Shown piece after piece: positions 1 through 44,400 of a DNA stretch of 64,000 nucleotides. The notes below the pieces were generated by a model. The model ran no database searches. It was not told the DNA's origin and worked only from the letters and a program-made list of their open reading frames with translations. Within the stretch, counting starts at the first letter, position 1, and the number at the start of each line of letters is the position of its first letter. The DNA lies in the NCBI GenBank assembly GCA_051294905.1, contig CM119372.1, positions 12,526,001-12,590,000 of the forward strand. Reading direction: 5' to 3'. Source of the stretch: Botryllus schlosseri (Eukaryota). A program made the translations under genes and the position numbers.

Positions 1-3000
1 CCTGGATGAAGCGTTTACGAGTTTAGCTCCGGAAAATTTATTTCAATTTCTCAGCTATGCAACTTCACGGCCCGTTCGCCGAAAGAATAGAAAAGATTAC
101 CAAGAACCGACAATTTGGATATAGTAAATCCCTACTTGTCATCTATAATAACATCTTAGTAGGTAACATACAGTCCTACTACACAGTAATAGGCAATACT
201 CTACGTGAACGATTCTTAACCTTAGTGCGGATCCCTAAATATATTTGTCTGTTTGCGTGCTCTCCCTAACCGCAAAATCAGAGAAGCAGGTCATCACTTC
301 CGCCCATTCCTCATCATGGCCTCATATTGGCATCTAGTCTGGTTGCTGCCGAAAACAAAGTCATAACCTTCGCTCGTGGCCTGGTGAGCGTTGAACATGA
401 GACTAAAATGAGAGGAGATGTTGTAAAGTAAAGGACAATGTAGTTTTATAGTGGTGGTTTCAACAGTGACCTTTCATGGACCTCTTAAGACCAGTCCGCA
501 GATCCCAAAGTGGTACATTGACCCTTAGGTTAAGAACCTCTGTTTTACGGGCCGTTTGAATAATCTAATAAACCTGTGGGACTCTTACATGCTTATTCGG
601 GTTACTATATGCGAATCATTTGATGCAGCATGCAGTATACTCAGATGTATTATTCAACATATATTTCGGCGAACAAATTAGCAAGCCGGACTCGACAGTC
701 ATTCATACCCATTGTCCTGCTTTGTAGTCGAATGTCGACGGCTTTTTGAATTCCAGATAAGTAACATGCGACGGGAGAAGCTCTGCTCTCACGACAGAAA
801 TTTCAGACTTGTTACGGCTGATGCTGTAGAGCTTGTCCAGCGTGTAAAGCACCGCCGGGCCCAAGAAGAAGTAGTAAAAGAACGGGCGCTGAAGATAAAA
901 GTAATACCCGGTATGAGCCGCGAGTTGGTGTCATGGGTATTTGGATAGGTACGTGGTATCTTGTCTGGTCAACATACATAACTTCACACACCTGTACCAA
1001 ATATCCGCTGCCGTGCAGGACCATGAAAAAGTACAGGAGAACGTATCCGTAGCTGTGAGTCCACCAAAACCAACGAAATACCCAAAGTCTCGCGTGGTCG
1101 CTTGCGAATACGTACCTGTAAGGTTCAGATTTGCAAATCGACGAGATCGTCTCGCGTATAAAGGCGGGGTTGCCATACCGTCCTTATTTCTAAGATTTGT
1201 CCTTATTTTGAAAGGTCAGGTCTTAGAAAACTCAACTGTCCTTATTTTTAGGAAATGTCCTTGTTTTCGATTTGCGTCCTTATTTTGTCTTATTTTCAAC
1301 AACTAAAGAACTTCGCTCGTTTTCCTCTGGTGTCTGTGTTGCTTAATATTCTAAAATTATGCCTTTGAGTTGTCATTTTATGACATAAATGAAAGGAACT
1401 CACGATATGTACATACCACAGGATTAGACTTCTAAGTGGTGAGATAGCTAGGGCGGCAGTGAGTGATATAGCAGTTTCGGCTGTACCAAGCTATCGCAGC
1501 GGACCTCATTTTAGCAGTTAACAGCAGTACCAGGGTTCTGCTGTGTAGTCTACAGCAGAATTAACTGTGGGGAAGGTAGCATTTATTGTGTAGTGAAAAA
1601 GGGAGCAGTGCAGTCGACACTTGGGTTAAAAAGTAGTCAAGCTATAAATCCTTGATAATTTCATTTAAATTATGTTGCAAATATAGTTTTAAGTACCACT
1701 AACAAGGCTAAATCTGATTAGCTAAAATGAGCAAGCGTAAAAATGTTATTCTTGAGGATTATGAGAGAGAATTCAAAGTATCAAACGAAGCTTGGAGGGC
1801 GAGTGTTTCGCTGTTTTGCACATCGCAATATCTGCAATTGTGACATTAACCTGGATGCCATAGGAAAGACCGCTATTTCAACTCTCACAGAGTATGTACA
1901 AAAACTCTCTAATTTTTCGACTGTCCTTATTTTTGGGACAATGTCACTGGCAACCCTGTAATAAAGGATTGACAATTTGCACAGAAATGGAAATAAAATA
2001 CAGAAACGGAATTATTCATGTCTCTCACCGTATTTGCGACATATTTCTCTGATTTTTCTCGAATCTTATGTTCGGATTCAACTTTGAAGTCGGGCTAGCT
2101 AGTCATATAAGAATCGTTGAAACCATTTAATGTTTAGCATGATATTTATTTTCCTTAAAGGTTGATATCAGCCGTACTGCCGCATAAGCTATAGTTTGAT
2201 AGCTGAGACCTAGACAGACCTGTTGGCAATAAAGCTGCTCTAATATCCAGAATATTGCGAAAATCCATAAACGACGTAACACAGTGCACACTGCACACAC
2301 TTACATCGTAATGACAACCAGGGTAGCAAGGATGCCTGTCAATCCCGTAATCGTTTGCCAAGCCCAGTAATGGAATTTAGGCAGCTCATCGCTGGTGCGC
2401 CAGTAGTCCGGGAAAAGGCAGCTCAAATCGCTGGACGGTTGCGTGGCTATGGAGTAGAAGTTGATCGAGTGTCCAAAGATATGAATAACTGTGGAAATCG
2501 AAAATATATTGCAACCGCCATGGTAACATAAACGCCACGCTGTCGCAAACCTGTGAATATCATCGCTTGCCATGCGATGTATCGGTGCATGGACACAGCG
2601 GCGTCAAACGGTATGTAGCGATTGAGGAAGGTTTCTCTTAGGAAGGTGATGGTGTTTCTGCTCATGGTCACGAGAAGGCAGGAATACGTGAACATCATCC
2701 CGGAGGCGGCGCCGCGAGTAAACGACACTCCGTAGCCGCAGATTCGACGGAGCCCGCCGTGCTCTCTTTCAACCGAGTAATCTGCGTCATAGGCGGAAAT
2801 GTAAGGGTGTTTGTTTGTTTGTTTGTTTGTTTGTGGTATTCATGGTGTTTGTCGACTACAACGGTCATCTACACCAGGCCGATAACTTATTTGTTTGATT
2901 CCGTAGCTGCCGACTTGTAGCGCGACCCACTTCTAGGCTTTTTTAAGACACCGCTTAAGCGAATAAGCTGGTGAGGAGGTGCCTAAATAAACCTCCAACA

Positions 3001-6000
3001 CTTATGTAGGAATTCTGGAGTTGACCTGGGTCGGACTCGAACCCACAACCCGTTGGTGATGTAGCTGTGTATTATACCACTACGCTATCGCGCCACAAAT
3101 GTACGGATTAAATAGTATATTCATATCGAAATGAACCCGAATATTTTCGGCTGACTCTCGTCAGGGGTAATCGTCAGCAACTAGTAGAGGATTGGAAAGA
3201 ACATTGTATATCAACATGATTGTTGTCAATACAACAATCATGTACAACAATCATGTTGATATATTCCTTTAAAGGTAGTCTAATTCTGAGAAACACGAAG
3301 GTACCTCGAGAATCTATGACTTATTGACATCTCCAAAGGTGATCAGTAACGCAGTACGCCTATTTTGTCGGAGTACTCAATATGGTTTCGCTCACTTGCA
3401 TTACTTACTCCAGTGTTTATGATTTTAGGGTATACTGCACTTCTACTACAGTTTTCCTTTTTAAGAAGAACTCATAGGCCTAGAATTCTTACTTTACTAC
3501 GTACCTGGAAATCGCTACATCACCTTGTAGCCTACTTGAGTAGAAATTTGCGACGTTGCTTGTAATTCTGCTCGAGTATAAAGAATGGCCACTTTGATCA
3601 ATACTGGAAATTCTCAGTAACAGTTCTGGACTTTTAGGTGGACGATGGCCAATAATTCTATATAGTCCTATAGACATGTAAGCTTCGCGCTTCACTGGAG
3701 CAGACGCCCGTTTTCAAAGGATGGGGGCACTTGTTTTCCGTGATATGCTTGTATCAGCATAACGGAATTCATACGGGCACTGAACAATTATAACCTCATG
3801 TTCAAAATATTTTCGCGTATTTTTATTTGATCTTGTACATTCCATTTCATCCCTTGTATGTTATAATGGAGCGGGTAACGAAAGAGTTCTTATACTTACA
3901 ATAAACCCTTTCCGCGAATATCGCCCAAGCCACCAGCGTGTACAACGTCAGCCAGTAGATGTGCATTCGATAATTCCGGATGTATTTTTGAAAGGCGATC
4001 ATTCGAATCTCGAATTGCGACGATTCTTTCTCCTCACGCTCGTGGACGCGGATGACGACGGTCTTGCGTCTCGCGAGTGCCCCGCGAGAAGTTGACGGCT
4101 CAGAGCTATCGCTAGTCGCCACAGATCTAAATATATATCTGATTTAGATTTGGAATATACAGCACAATGCAGGCATGGCGGAGGCGTATACAATAACCAT
4201 GTACGTACAGCTTATTATTATCAATGAAACGAAGGACCATATCGTTATGGAGGTCAAGTTAAACGTCTACAACGCGTTTTGCTACGCGGATTTGAAAATG
4301 GGCATTGGGCAAGGATTATTATGGGATGAGCTTAAACCAGATATGGAGAGGTCGTCCGGATTAATATATACTTATCTTGCGAAGCGCGGGTTGAGACGTA
4401 GAATTGATGGTGGAATAGGGTCCGTTGCGGAATTTTATTGTCGATTTTGAAAGCAATCGGTAACCAATAGATATGCATGGACTTGATTTGTAGTAAAATC
4501 AGCATTTGAGTTCGATACAGGATTTGAATTTAGAAATGTTAAAACCCGCGTGTCTGTTATAGTTACGTTAAGAGGGGCTTAAGATTGCGAAATACTGATG
4601 GCTGATATTATGCTGCACCTAAGCACGTAAGCATAACCACACGAAAGCATGTACCACAGCCTAAAATAAAGCTCGAACTGAACGATCATGGAAACAGCAA
4701 TTACATCGATGTTGGTGTCACTGACAATGATCACATTCAACGTATAGGCTACTATCGAGGAATAATCTATCAATGCTATCATATATTCAATAAGTATAGG
4801 CTATTATAGAGTAAACAATGGTAATACCATATTATACCTGCAAATGATGTTATTCTTATTTTCACAATAACCTACTGTAAAACGTATTAATGTTCAATTA
4901 CTCAAGTATGTCGTTCACCCAAGAGAGAATGGTTACGAAAGTGGATTAGGAATACAGGCTATATACAAGAAGCTTATGTTGCCGAATAACGAAGATTTAG
5001 CAAGTCTCTTTTATGTATATTATTATTAGTATTATGTATATAATATAAGTATTAATGTGAAAACTTTTCCTATTATTCCTGGATGTTAATATGATTATAC
5101 GACACAATCAAAATTTAGCTCAACGAAACTAGTAGCGCTACAAGCATAAGACGGAAAGTGATACAGTATAGTTGTATCTTGTATTAGTGAAGTGTATTGA
5201 TGAAAATTTCATTATAAAGACGACAGTTGCAGCATCAAGTTGATGCGATGAGTTTTGCGAGACGTCCACGCCACAACACTACACCTTCGTATAATTACTC
5301 TTCTTTCAGAGGTCGGAGCAGAACACGGATGAACTCTTGGCGAGGATACTCTAGTAATACAACGGAGATGAGCACTTACATATATGCAATATATATGTAG
5401 GCCTACATTGTACAAGTATATGCTGACACAAAAGCCAGCTTAGAGTTATACCGGATAATTCGCTCACACAAGATACCCGCATGCTGGTATGCAGACCTGG
5501 ATCTATCTAACAGACTTGTAGAGCAATATGTATAAATGATAAGATGCATCGATGAAATGAAACGTTGGTCAATGCAAATATATAGTGTTAATAGAGTGCT
5601 GATAAAATCGATTGCTCCAGCACTGCATGTATTTAGGCCGATGATATGGCATAACTCTCGGTGTTCGGATATCTATTGTAGAAATTGATATAAATTGGAT
5701 TTATGTTAGGTTTCCTTTGGATAATGCGTGCCAGACAATTCGAAGGAAGATGTGGTTGTATATTATCCGTGTTTAATCCCTTACTTTACATATTTAATAA
5801 TAAAAGCATATATATAATTGACTTTGAAAATCAATAAGCTTATAGGTAACCTTTGGACTATATTCGGACGTATTTCCTATAGCAATATGACTTTATATAT
5901 TTTTGTCCTGGATGTTTTTGCGGAATATACACCGACTAATGATATAGTTGCACAGTTTGCACACGATCTGTGCATATGCCAAACAGTAGGGCGGATCGAC

Positions 6001-12000: not shown

Positions 12001-15000
12001 AATATAATAATTATTGAGGCATAGTAATAGCATTGCTTCTTAACCTTTTTTGGTAATTGTAACTGTGCTTCCAATAAGATTCCTCGTGGCCCCTGTCCAT
12101 TTTCAACACAATTTCCGATGGTACCAATATTAAAATTAGAAAGCCCATTCACTTAAAATTGCGCTTAGCGCGAAGACTATTTTTCAGTTGAATAAATTGG
12201 CCAGGAAAATATTCCACTGCATAGGCCTGATTCCACAATGCATATCGTACCCCTGATGTGGTGCTTCGTACCCCGATTAGGTCAAAGAACCCCTGGAACA
12301 GAAATTTCCAATCGCCGAAGAATTCATTGGCGTTACAGCTGTGGAGCGTATATACTACTACCTTAGTCGCCACCGATAATAACATGAATTTATTATTATT
12401 AATTGTGAAAATGGGACATTGTGGCGCTTATCACCTTATCGGTCTGGTGCACCACGACCAACAATTTCGTATTACATGTCTCAAGTCGTTTACATTTAAA
12501 AAAGAATTGCTTAAATCAACACGTTGCTGGCCAGGACGAACTCAACGATAGGCGATAGAAGTTCTGGCCGTACGAGAAGGTTATCTGTGGTGAACTCAAC
12601 TTTCAAGTTCAAGCAGAAATCAATCAAATATGCTCGGTGCCAATCATATTTTGGGCATGCGAGGAGGAAGTGATCCACATTCTCGGGTACGAGACATAAG
12701 TCACACAATGGCGTGTCGATGCAGCCTATTTTGAATAAATGCCCCTTTAGGCGACAATGGCCGGATCGGAGACGGAATATTATCGTTTCATACAAAAGCG
12801 ATCTGTGCATTGAGGGAAACGTCGTATGTACCGTTTGGTGGAAACGTTTGTAGTGGTTTCCCGTCTCTGTGGAACGGTACTCGGTCTGCCACTCACTCTG
12901 GACGTATTTGCGTACTTCGTTCTTGACATCTCTATAGGTAATTACAGGTAGGCCTACTTCCTGACTGTCAAATGCAAAAGCGGCGGTGGAACGTGCAAGT
13001 TCATCTGCAACCTCATTGCCAGGAATGCCACTATGTCCTGGAACCCAGGAGAAGGCAACGTCGATGCTCATTCCTACCAACTGCAGGAACAGAGGGAAAA
13101 TCTTATTGAACGTTCTGCTCGGTTTGCGGTTCGGGTAGCGATTGTATTCAGAACACTAAGACAATCTGTGATAATAACATGGATAAAGAGAACAAACAAC
13201 ACCCAGCATGGGTACGTCACGGGGGTCACAGAATACCAATGGTTGCCATACTGACCAGATTAGATAACTATATACCCTGCGCAACGCATGCTACGACCTT
13301 TTTATATATTACTATTTCCCATGACAGTTTCATAGATTGTTGCGTCCGTAGGATTACCAAGTTACGGTTACGAGTCGCAAGTCCTTCTCTGATTTTGACG
13401 GTTGACCCGACTAAACTAGAGTCATTTTTATTTAATCATCCAGTCCATCCGTAATCGAGTAATTTTACGAAAGGTCGCACCAAACCAAATAACAATTTTC
13501 AGTCGCGAATCATCAACGGGTCTTGTTTTATCATCACGTAATAGCTGATCTTCTACCGCATGGTAGCTTAAGTGATATGATAGTGAAGCTCGTTGAGATT
13601 TCAGTGATTTTTATAGTAGTTTTAGGGTGAACTTCAAGTTCTTATACCTAAAAAGATATATGGCACTTGAATATATTGTTGAATACTTGAAATTCCAAAA
13701 TGCCGTCGCGGGCCGCGTGTTTGAGACCTCTGAGGTAGAGCATAGCGACGAGAGGATTTTGTTGCACTATATGATATATGTGAAGACCTTTTGCAGCAAT
13801 ACAGGAGATACAGGATACTGGGTCGATTCTTGGCATGTGAAAAATCTCACTTGAATATTGATGGCCATGAGATCACGACGAGAGAATTCGAGAGGACCAA
13901 ACACGCTTCCCCGTAAGTCGGGAGTTATGATGTTGTCTTCACGCTCGCAAATCTGACTGGCCATCCCCATGAGCAGTTCGCTGAAGCCATCTTCGGATGA
14001 ACCCAACTTTTCGGTCAACGCTTCCTGCCAATACAGAACAATATGGAACAGGTTCGTCGGCAAGAACGGTATAGAAATAAGACCACGGGTTTTTCCGTCT
14101 CGCAAACAACAGTTTTTTCGCAATACTTCCATTGTACTATAGTACAATGGGAGTATTGCGAAAAATTTGTGTTCATACTGTATAGAACTACATACAGCAC
14201 TTGTACATACAATATGAAATCTAACACTTTTCGTCATATCACAGTTCGACGAGATAGAAAATAAATGGTTGCTGCAATCTGCCTGTATTATCTATAGATG
14301 GACTAATAACCTTGTTATTGTTTTTGTGTCGGGTGACGTATCTCTTACATCGGAAATCCCGAAGCAACTGATTAAGAAATCTATATCGAAGATGTTTTGA
14401 CCGCCCATTGTTTTGCGGTTGGAGTTCGTTCGGTTTGATTTACGATACGAGATGTAAGACAATGTCCAACTATTACCGATATATATCAATACGGAGCCAA
14501 GTCGAAGACAAAAATATTCCCCGTATTTCGAGTTAGATTTACCGCAGTCGGTACATTGTCGTTCGCTACTGATGAGAGTCTGACGTAAGCTTTTGTAAAT
14601 ATATTCACATAATACAGTCATTGCTATTTCTGTACCGCGATTGGTTTGCCTGGAATTGGCAAGAATGTCCGCATTCAACAACATTTTCTTGTGCTTTTCG
14701 TAGTCGTACGTATACCCAGTGACATTTGCTCAAACAAAACGCAATACTGCAATATTATGATCATCTTCCAAAAAGTCTTGCATCCGGGGATATGTGTAAT
14801 ACATTGCGAAGCATGACTTTGATCACATCCGGCAGATATGAAGATTTGTCGAACAATTTTCATGCGAGTAAACTCTCACGCCTTTTCGCGGACAGTATGA
14901 GAAATAGCAACTGCAACATGTGTGGGACTCACGATGGCTTACCACATTTTGCATGTAATCGAAGTTTGCCGTGATTGGGCGTTGCGGCTAAGCAATAGGT

Positions 15001-41400: not shown

Positions 41401-44400
41401 TTTCACTAAAATCGCGTAACTCCTCTGTATGGGCTGGAATCGGTGTTGCCCAAACTCTTTTGAGCTAGCACATCCCTGGACAACGGCTAGATCTAGAGTG
41501 TCAGCGCCCCCCCCCCGACTCCCCCTGACCACGCCTAAATCAAACGAAAGTTGTTCTGCATTTATTACAGCTAATTATGAGACGGGTCAAGCTGGTGTAT
41601 TATTATGATCACCCTCGTCGCATTGGGTTTGAGTTTTGATAAGAACAATCTATTTCGAAAATCTCCAGTCACCAGGTTCCGTACTGTGAAGTCGGTTTCT
41701 GCTGCGAGTCAGAAACCTTGTCACGGCTTTTAAAACACGTTCTATTAGTATTAAATATGATCGAGGAAAGGCAGCGGCACAAAACTCGACCCGATTCTAA
41801 TGAGAGTATGTCGCCATGATTTAATTGTGTATCCTATCCACAACGAATAATTGGATATATTGAACTTCAGTTTGAACTCAAAACTGTTCTACCTCTGACA
41901 CTATAATCTAACGCGAAACAATAACTTCATATTGTTAATTTATTCGCTAAAAGCTTTTCGACTGACTCTCATCAGTAGCGAACGTCAGTAATAGGGTGAA
42001 TCAAATTCAAAATGTAGAAACTATTTTGTCTGTATGACGTAATATTAACAAAAACAAACAATTAGTAGACAAGCAAGATACGTTAGCAACGATACAAAAC
42101 AAACGTATCTACAATCCTGGAATATTTCATTAATGTTATGTGTTGTTGTTTCCAGTTATTTATAACTGAATATGTACTCGTTAACGTTTGTTTTGTATCG
42201 TTACTATACCGTATATAGAAAAGTCGATTATAACTTGACAATGTTGATCCTGCCATTCAATGGACTAATTTAGCAGTCGGTAGCGCGGTAGGGGGTAGGG
42301 GTGTAGGGGGCGCTACGAGTAAACGGGGGCGGTGTAGGTTTGGAAGGCAACTGCTGCGTAGTGTTGAAACGACTGATGAATAAAGCAGCTGAATTCGCAG
42401 CAATATTCAGAATCGATTCATTCAGGGCAATTTAGGATCGTCCGTCTATCTCAGTGGTTCTTATCCTTGCCCCCAGCGCCGCCCAAGGGGCGCTGGCGAT
42501 TTTGAAGGGGGCGGAAACGCTCAGGGGGCGATATGGGGGGCGCTGGGCTCAGGGGGGCGGTATGGGGGGCGCTGGAGAAAAATGGCTTCGCAGTAGATGA
42601 TGTGGTGGTAGGACATATCCTTAATGAGTATTCAGAGCAAATTAACACCGAAAACTTCGTTATAGCCTTCAAAATACAAATAGTTTTATTTGTCCATGGG
42701 CGCCTAAATGACTGGCACCGAATGTTGCTGTCTTGGCAATCTGAACCCCAGAAGGCGAATTCCATCTGACAGAGAAAAATTATATGCCAGTGAATAAATA
42801 CCAATTTGAAATCGTGTGCGTCTTTTAGTTTAGTACGATTTGGCGACAGGGATATTCCTGTTGAGCGATATCCCCGTTGGGCGATATCCCCGTTGGGCGA
42901 TCCCCGTTTTTGATATAGCAGACAGGAGGTCACGAAATAACATCATGCAACGAAGTCATACCAACGGGTTCGCCCGCCCGAATATGTTTAATTATTAGTT
43001 ACGGGCCCTACAGTTTCCAAGACACCTCACAATGTTCGCTTTAAGTTTTGATGAGTCTGCGCACACTCAACAACTCACTGCGCTGACCCTTGGACAACAG
43101 TGCGTAACGACTAAAAAAAGGTCATAACTTCTGATTTGTTGTGCGCAACGTAGATTTTCTGTGCGCAGCGACCGTGTCGGCACTGCGCACGTGCGCAGCT
43201 TAGAGGGAACATTGTACCGCACTCAGCTCTACCGGTAAATCTGGTAACGTGAGCAGAGAGGACAAGAAATTGATAGCAATATATATGCAATCCTCGATCT
43301 TAGCCTACTGTCCGATTCTAGTATGATATCGACAGTTTTCGCGCTTCGCAAAGGCACGCTAAACAGTACAGCTGATTCCGCGGCAAAAGCGAACAACGTG
43401 ATGGGGGGCGGTCGGTTTACCACCCTATGGGAGCCCAAGACCCAAGTTTTTTCGGGGGCCTGACGAAGTGCCGTTTCGTTCCTGCCAACGGGTATACACC
43501 CGAAGATGTATGATTATTATTGAGAGGTCCTACCTTTTCAATCACACATCACTCAGCTTTACCGGTAAATCTGTTTACGTGAGCAGAGAGAGGATAAAAA
43601 TTGATCTCAATATGCATGCAATTCCCGATCATATTGACCAATTCAATCATTAATTAGTGAAATGTTTCGCGCTTCGCGCGTCTAAGCGAGAATAGCTGCC
43701 TCAGTAAATGGACGCCCAATGTAGATGACTATTATCAGCAAATATCGGACAGCCGAATGGGGGTCTGGGGGCGAAGCCCCCCGGAAGTTTGGTTTATCAC
43801 CCGATGGGGACTCAAGACCAACGTTTTTTGTTGGGGGGGGCTGACGAAGTGCTGTTACGGCCCTGGTAACGAATTAATTGTACCTACGGGCACGCCCGAA
43901 TAAGTTTAATTATTAATTACGTGCCCTTTATTTTCCTGTACACCAGCTCACTCCGCGCTGCTGGTAAATCTGATTACGTGGGCTGAGAGGATAAAAAGTT
44001 TATAGCGACTTATATATGTAAATACCACCTATTCATTAAAGCATTATAGAAAATTTTGGTACCTAGGGCGAACAGGCCACACAAACTTTGCTGACCATCG
44101 AAATCACGCTATGGGGTTCTTGGGGGCGAAGTCCTCAGAAGTTTGGTTTATCACGCTATGGGTGCACAAGGCAATCGTTTTTAGGGGGATTGACGAAGTG
44201 CTGTTGCGGCCCTCCCTCTTACTCATTGTCTTTATTACATTCCTTATAATATGAGGTTGGGGGGCGCTGGAGCACGATAATTTTTGAAAGGGGGCGCTGG
44301 AGGAAAAAAGGTTAAGAACCACTGGTCTATCTACTCAGCCGTTCCAGAAAAGTCCATTGTTACTTAACAATGTGGATCCTGCCTTTCAATGGAGTAATTC

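Follow-up and report, generated by a model that had tools for sequence, protein, structure and literature searches.

An intron of a DUOX gene of Botryllus schlosseri carries the ribozyme of a mobile element. The gene lies in a 64-kb stretch of contig CM119372.1 (the window, to whose full length all coordinates below refer unless a locus is named), and the ribozyme, a 51-base hammerhead motif, sits on the minus strand at 41989-41939. This ribozyme belongs to the terminal repeat of a Penelope-like retrotransposon (PLE), of which a 5'-truncated insertion was left in the intron. The motif is present in thousands of copies in the 495.5 Mb genome that we searched, an origin missed by an earlier, sequence-only reading of the stretch. 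Judging from the sequences of many copies, the pairing between its 5' leader and loop II is very probably real. On the whole, the observations are probably best explained by a relic of a PLE terminal-repeat ribozyme that is stabilised by a pseudoknot, depends on dimers and is neutral in DUOX.

The sequence-only reading had described a hammerhead at this position, and every element it quoted is present, on the minus strand. From 5' to 3' the parts are as follows.

41989-41984, minus strand: 5' leader ACUGAC, 6 bp with loop II, 8 nt upstream of the core
41982-41976, minus strand: 5' strand of stem I, 7 nt; stem I has 7 bp and shows covariation
41975-41969, minus strand: catalytic core CUGAUGA (C3-A9), invariant columns in the alignment of representatives
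41968-41960, minus strand: stem II, a lone G10.1-C11.1 pair with a 7-nt loop (G10.1 at 41968, loop 41967-41961, C11.1 at 41960)
41959-41950, minus strand: GAAA (41959-41956), palindromic stem III AAGCUU (41956-41951) and U17 (41950)
41949-41943, minus strand: 3' strand of stem I, 7 nt
41944-41939, minus strand: AAUAAA, shared in part with the last bases of stem I; intact elements have within it an in-frame stop shortly before the open reading frame (ORF) begins
3178-3135, minus strand: second copy of the same ribozyme design, with leader 3178-3173, core from 3164 and predicted cut at 3139|3138

The order of CUGANGA, GAAA and NUH is correct, the end of stem I is open, and stems I, II and III all surround the core, stems II and III being minimal. 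By its sequence the motif is a type I hammerhead. A single G separates the leader from stem I, and loop positions 2-7 (41966-41961) are complementary to the leader. By the hammerhead consensus, the cut is predicted between 41950 and 41949. The earlier claim that the stems still pair holds for stem I with its 7 bp; stem II, however, consists of only one G-C pair, and stem III of a monomer has only 2 bp around a 2-nt loop, yet it is a perfect 6-nt palindrome. The AAUAAA at the 3' end, also pointed out earlier, is retained in the A families defined below and is seen in the U3-A8 family, but it is absent from families B, C and D.

Because no Rfam match was found and minimum free energy (MFE) folding gives another hairpin, the window sequence by itself is insufficient to prove the structure; the evidence came from the genome. 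In an Rfam scan of the window no model reached its gathering score. The window copy scored best with RAGATH-1 (RF03152), at 18.4 bits against a cut-off of 56.3, and the Hammerhead_1 model reached 16.6 bits against a threshold of 34 on locus L171. These scores, which supply the comparison with Rfam that had been proposed as a check, reflect a limit of the models for this shape and not of the core. A 20-letter core pattern had 251 exact matches in the genome against 0 for the reversed control, and a pattern indifferent to the loop had 7,249 against 0, so the motif is no chance match. The copies share their flanks over about 200 nt; the extent common to the 41939 copy and many genome loci runs from -131 to +67 around the core.

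The parent element can be read from intact copies. At locus L031 an open frame of 853 codons (1567-4125; 850 amino acids from the ATG) lies between two motif copies, at 1531 and 4309, which are 2,778 bp apart, and the units follow each other head-to-tail. In intact elements the motif is placed 181 nt past the stop codon, with the predicted cut 20 nt ahead of the next ATG. The protein contains a reverse transcriptase (RT) domain (RVT_1, E 7e-10, 39.3 bits against a cut-off of 29.6) and matches telomerase RT weakly (E 0.7). Its C-terminal GIY-YIG-like domain scores below threshold in Pfam (E 0.0012, 19.6 bits against 22.6), though the translation shows the motif and the Cys/His residues. Tandem and inverted 5'-truncated copies, as expected of an element forming pseudo-long terminal repeats (pLTRs), occur in L032, L034, L035, L037 and L038 besides L031, and the hammerhead lies within the pLTR, as in other endonuclease-bearing (EN+) PLEs. 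Of the genome matches scored (54), 36 cover the full length without a stop and are 99-100% identical, so the A family is young; tandem arrays occur among the matches. A non-LTR retrozyme was considered and rejected: such elements form short non-coding tandem units, whereas the units here are 2,778-bp coding PLEs and the window copy is solo. In the viral contigs no relative of the PLE was found.

The window copy belongs to a 198-nt fragment of family A1, which aligns without gaps to intact L031:1400-1597 with 15 differences (14-15 to L007 and L025). Only two of the 15 fall inside the motif, at 41986 (G) and 41964 (C), and these are the two partners of one leader:loop pair, G-C in the window copy and A-U in the intact young subfamily. 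A genome pattern allowing 64 leader/loop combinations gave 566 matches and 0 in the control. When the first 100 of the 566 listed were counted by hand, 95 were fully Watson-Crick paired, three contained a G-U and two a mismatch. The 95 are made up of ACTAAC/GTTAGT (42), ACTGAC/GTCAGT (23), ACTGGC/GCCAGT (29) and ACTGGT/ACCAGT (1). The complementarity and compensatory change proposed from the two DUOX copies are therefore borne out by copies elsewhere in the genome.

Pairing is also kept between families. The second DUOX copy, at 3135, is as the sequence-only reading described it and belongs to family B, whose pair is GCTGAC/GTCAGC; L180 and L182 of this family carry an endonuclease C-terminus with 54-58% identity to the family A protein. 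On this sequence evidence, the 3135 and 41939 copies arrived independently, from different PLE families. The sequence swaps between them, which had been taken as changes within one structure-conserved variant, are consequently inherited differences between transposon families and did not arise in DUOX; the type I fold with covarying leader stands. A scan of metagenome contigs with the pattern indifferent to the loop gave at least 121 loci. Among the matches listed, 87 belong to family C (TCTGAC/GTCAGA): 11 run off the end of their contig, and of the 76 whose leader is intact, 73 pair 6/6. Among the remaining 34 metagenome loci listed, L300 pairs 6/6 (TGACGC/GCGTCA, spacer 9), L230 does so with two G-U pairs, and the others resemble chance matches. 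In a chance control on viral contigs, none of 38 pattern matches pairs 6/6. Pieces of PLE ORF ends (52-63% identity) link both family C loci and L300 to these elements. A further family with a U3-A8 core has 952 genome matches against 16 in the control (e.g. L328-L346) and a PLE ORF end at 66%; it has a 1-bp stem II, a 7-nt loop, the leader TGTGCC and a spacer of 8.

We counted pairs on an alignment of 11 representatives, with 500 shuffles, which do not keep relatedness, and slid controls. Paired cells amounted to 90.9%, 10 of 16 pairs showed double changes, none of the 500 shuffles scored as high, and the slid controls gave 24-40%. In stem I, six of seven pairs change on both sides; the stem II pair is invariant. 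The count is conservative, as the L300 row stands one base out of register at the leader (a MAFFT gap at the 5' end), so that six pairs were scored as unpaired. At the level of families, leader pairs 1, 2, 4 and 5 show double changes where a family has many copies; for pair 3 the double change comes from L300 alone, and for pair 6 from a single genome copy. Predicted energies of the leader:loop duplex range from -4.1 to -8.5 kcal/mol in 8/8 representatives, against -0.4 to -6.2 for the hairpin between core and loop. Failure of leader and loop to covary in other copies had been named in advance as grounds for dropping the pseudoknot; they covary across families and data sets.

The remaining parts are shared as well. 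The stem III palindrome is AAGCUU or AAUAUU across families A, B, C and D, and a search for families with other palindromes yielded 45 matches against 16 in the control and no recurring new family. The UUU triplet, from which the sequence-only reading predicted slower cleavage, is no mark of the window copy but the state of the youngest intact A subfamily and of the unrelated family C. Work on minimal hammerheads associates UUU with slower cleavage; one paper searched held no UUU data. As a separate observation, broken family B motifs stand in pairs that face outward, spaced about 360 bp, in L111 and L112, and such pairs recur with identical fixed changes at many loci (in genome G000: C1:8426516/8426884, C1:11475958/11476319, C3:30748/31109, C3:5656526/5656887, C4:2722542/2722903 and C4:3297685/3298046). 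The pattern hints that another element amplified an inverted-repeat unit about 450 bp long.

Next to the genome evidence, the setting of the copies in DUOX is unexceptional. Self-comparison of the window revealed two tandem DUOX paralogs on the minus strand, and of the exons flanking the copies, one matches mouse Duox1 at residues 1051-1137 (E 7e-20) and one, weakly, at residues 1003-1050 (E 0.056). The paralogs, at 46-21949 and 35733-64000, are similar in introns as well as exons, about 78-94% in aligned blocks, and their sequences suggest a fairly recent tandem duplication. Three PLE fragments lie in the window.

41909..42106, minus strand: solo 198-nt pLTR fragment of family A1, truncated at its 5' end, in an intron of DUOX paralog B, in the gene's sense
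3105..3216, minus strand: solo pLTR fragment of family B, 112 nt, in an intron of DUOX paralog A, with 2 differences per 112 nt to L180
14506..14623, plus strand: third pLTR fragment, family A, decayed, antisense to DUOX paralog A; core intact, loop, GAAA and stem I broken

In paralog A, the 3135 copy sits in the intron that follows the exon reaching up to Duox1 residue 1050, and the 41939 copy lies upstream of the matching exon (41105-40848) in paralog B. By this alignment the two do not share an intron, and to the extent that the paralogs can be compared, their introns are neighbours. Separate landing, as proposed earlier, thus agrees with the different families and different introns; the intron numbers 22 and 23 are those of the sequence-only reading alone. 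No target-site duplication is evident by eye in the flanks of the 198-nt fragment. Two copies in one window are ordinary, since the core pattern has a density of 0.94 per 64 kb, and their place in DUOX introns is to be expected by chance, the P of two or more per 64 kb being 0.24. Compared with three other copies, the 41939 copy has seven private changes, none of them in the 51-nt motif; this is not significant as a sign of selection (P = 0.12), and its intactness is what brought the copy to notice. We see no sign of a DUOX role for it, and its relevance to DUOX is very probably none. In another intron of paralog A, the minus strand at 12514-13155 holds a 214-codon frame that by eye resembles the RNase H end of a non-LTR retrotransposon.

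Three raw RNA runs (3-6% of each) were placed on the permuted element unit L031:460-3200, not on the DUOX locus. Reads concentrate on the pLTR region, and depth in the 5' half of the ORF is mostly below 3. Because 90% of the placed reads of run X24 continue into unlike sequence, most element reads come from truncated copies in other transcripts. In run X22 the strand ratio at 1380-1471 is 177 to 6.5, the majority strand being that of the ribozyme if the library is of the 10x 3' type that its read lengths indicate. Judging by the same read lengths, priming on poly(A) is probable for the single-cell libraries, which would then fail to capture cyclic-phosphate ends. Template-switch adaptor joins were seen at L031:1364 and 1379 in two RNA runs (7 and 5 reads); transcription may start there, within the pLTR and some 150-165 nt ahead of the core.

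How the ribozyme would work can be outlined from its parts. Cleavage in tandem 2,778-bp units would release unit-length element RNA from read-through transcripts. Six loop bases and the leader, with one base left as a bridge, would stack on G10.1-C11.1 and form a 7-bp arm alongside the 7-bp stem I; the leader helix would then tie together the far ends of stems I and II, replacing the usual loop-loop contact. Phage hammerheads of the same geometry and the mutants of Perreault suggest an activating role for this helix: in a type II hammerhead with a 1-bp stem II, a 6-bp pseudoknot was reported to be required for fast cleavage (PMC3088659). Stem III is probably too weak alone, so that two copies would pair through the 6-mer, or the element protein would assist, before cutting. 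By analogy with known hammerheads the palindrome points to dimer-dependent cleavage: both PLE hammerheads with palindromic stem III (PMC4209133) and newt hammerheads of the same kind (PMC6765202) are reported to be slow and to cut as dimers, and an anole PLE hammerhead is reported to cut only with protein present (PMC11167929). Tandem elements would provide the dimer partner in cis. For the 41939 copy no same-strand partner was found among hammerhead cores in the window; since its pre-mRNA lacks one there, the solo DUOX copy most likely cuts rarely, and most likely has no role in DUOX.

A number of observations weigh against a pseudoknotted ribozyme that cleaves as dimer. MFE folding of the lone 51-mer gives a different hairpin (z -1.27, not significant), and MFE folding of monomer or dimer never returns the hammerhead, ViennaRNA being unable to model a pseudoknot. 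In the dimer of A1 the palindrome can extend to 10 bp, taking in A13, A14 and U17, and such a form would be inactive. The most amplified U3-A8 subfamily has an outer U-C mismatch and pairs 5/6 (4 of 19 motifs read); of the 19 U3-A8 motifs only two reach 6/6, the remainder, which had been picked for their odd loops, being decayed or truncated. Variant loops in family B were followed up as a sign of compensated subfamilies, but the leaders of these copies are unchanged or decayed, which we read as decay after insertion. The copies are related and not independent events, so covariation counts are not probabilities. Finally, in the three runs 29, 60 and 91 reads span the base preceding the cut, and read ends do not accumulate there among the rows listed. 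Uncut element RNA evidently exists, and the reads neither show nor exclude cleavage.

Covariation shows pairing but not its timing, which leaves room for the leader:loop helix as a folding guard or off-switch outside the active fold: formed first in transcription, it would shield the core from the loop and then be released, or melted by the element protein. In families A1, B and C the loop could indeed pair with the core, that hairpin appears in the MFE structure of the window copy, and a need for protein would agree with the anole hammerhead (PMC11167929). We nevertheless consider such a guard unlikely. Families A3 and D keep the leader pairing, yet their hairpin of core and loop is weak or missing (-2.4 and -0.4 kcal/mol); the helix is compatible with stem I and core, with its spacing retained in phage hammerheads; and the type II ribozyme mentioned above was fast only with its 1-bp stem II and 6-bp pseudoknot together.

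Two other explanations concern what the fold is kept for. That it persists as a protein-binding or priming signal of the retrotransposon, cleaving seldom or never in vivo, would fit the lack of reads ending at the cut site both here and in anole RNA-seq, as well as insertion in vitro that catalytic mutants leave unimpaired (both PMC11167929) and the poor in vitro cutting of PLE hammerheads (PMC4209133). Yet all catalytic positions are invariant in the 11 representatives, one family has a compensated U3-A8 core pair, as selection on a catalytic fold predicts, and the absence of cut ends loses weight in libraries probably blind to cyclic-phosphate termini; we hold this explanation to be improbable. 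It is highly improbable that the intronic copy has been domesticated and regulates DUOX-B by cleavage or by intronic polyadenylation at AAUAAA, in the manner of the vertebrate RECK and C10orf118 hammerheads, which are intronic too. The copy does lie in the gene's sense with an unblemished motif, and a sense copy exists in both DUOX paralogs; but the lack of private changes is of the order of chance in a copy noticed for being intact, the genome density alone predicts about one copy per window, and the two copies are of different families in different introns, the third being antisense and decayed. The PLE relic, neutral in DUOX, remains our preferred explanation.

More tentatively, and with a chance that we put well below even, an animal PLE clade combining a phage-type 1-bp stem II, a pseudoknot and a dimer-only stem III may possess a counter that cuts only tandem, transposition-competent transcripts. 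Such a ribozyme would be fast when two copies meet and silent alone, and host pre-mRNAs with solo copies would be spared. Rfam and descriptors based on helix II would then miss the design (at least 7,249 plus 952 copies here), and PLE families listed as hammerhead-free might carry overlooked knotted or permuted ones.

Among known systems the nearest in origin are the PLE hammerheads. Terminal-repeat hammerheads with palindromic stem III and U3-A8 cores are already published (PMC4209133), and EN+ PLE anatomy like that of L031 is described in PMC8557442. L031 resembles Penelope/Poseidon-type EN+ PLEs in its single ORF with RT and C-terminal GIY-YIG-like domain, CCHH-type residues and DKG motif, and in its tandem plus inverted 5'-truncated insertions (PMC8557442); its putative placement there rather than with Neptune or Nematis goes by the apparent absence, by eye, of the Zn-finger linker. 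The min-HHRs of Cervera and De la Pena (2014, PMC4209133) are alike in pLTR location, type I topology, short palindromic stem III and mostly scattered solo copies, and the palindromic positions 15.2-16.2 and loop 3 of their consensus are found here too. They differ in that the 56 representatives of Fig. S3 have, by eye, a helix II of at least 3 bp and usually an extra base after A9, whereas here helix II is 1 bp, with no extra base between positions 9 and 10.1. In the File S2 table of Craig (PMC8557442) helix II is likewise at least 3 bp by eye, and a 2017 review (PMC6155905) describes PLE hammerheads as free of tertiary interactions.

Nearest in shape are hammerheads of phages and metagenomes. 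RAGATH-1 shares the single G-C pair of stem II, the 7-nt loop before GAAA and the pairing of the loop with an upstream element; it differs by a stable, long stem III hairpin, with which it should act as a monomer, and by a partner presented in a 5' hairpin loop about 17-22 nt upstream (5 bp), an arrangement that we found in phage contigs. A pattern taken from the RAGATH-1 consensus (three loop bases fixed) fetched 24 phage loci, 11 of 20 scanned reaching the family cut-off, and their loops pair with an upstream element. Phage loci L311 and L326 come closer to the PLE form, with a linear leader of 6-7 bp directly ahead of a 7-bp stem I, and differ by a stable stem III. In viral contigs the same 1-bp stem II, linear leader pairing and stable stem III were seen in L311, L326 and L304/L320, which stay below the RAGATH-1 cut-off or have no listed match (L326 was not scanned). 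Perreault 2011 (PMC3088659) reported a Watson-Crick pseudoknot replacing the loop-loop contact in all three hammerhead types, including one case with a 1-bp stem II and 6 bp; the tested 1-bp case, however, is type II and from a metagenome. The human C10orf118 intronic hammerhead, which is among the pseudoknotted forms of that paper, is single-copy and conserved across mammals, whereas the window motif is a young high-copy repeat.

An observation of another kind comes from the Naiad consensus sequences in the accessible part of the PMC8557442 supplement. By eye, six complete hammerheads can be recognised there in non-circular order, among them in the entries ending just before the headers Naiad-3_Nbra and Naiad_Hcon. 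The order is core, 5' strand of stem II, helix with leader, 3' strand of stem III with the GUC cut site and 3' strand of stem I, 3' strand of stem II, GAAA and 5' strand of stem III; as judged by eye, helix sequences differ between entries and pairing is kept. These passages appear by eye to be type CSG, which Eckert 2023 (PMC10085705) knew from two metagenome sequences only. Craig 2021 (PMC8557442) described Naiads as lacking canonical hammerheads and marked some as HHR_core or HHR_half_core. The type CSG hammerheads are possibly more interesting than the finding in the DUOX intron.

The pseudoknotted hammerhead with a 1-bp stem II is not in itself new, being present in Perreault 2011 and in RAGATH-1 of Rfam. 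What seems new is its combination with the dimer-type stem III of PLEs: we found no description of this form in PLE hammerheads in the literature compared, Lünse 2017, which could contain it, lying outside that comparison. PLE hammerheads have been reported as slow and without tertiary contacts. A PLE family with a covarying pseudoknot and at least 36 intact, near-identical copies in the genome of one animal offers a clean system for testing whether cleavage matters in transposition, with natural compensatory variants available for five of the six leader:loop pairs, and it reveals a gap in the hammerhead searches now applied to animal genomes.

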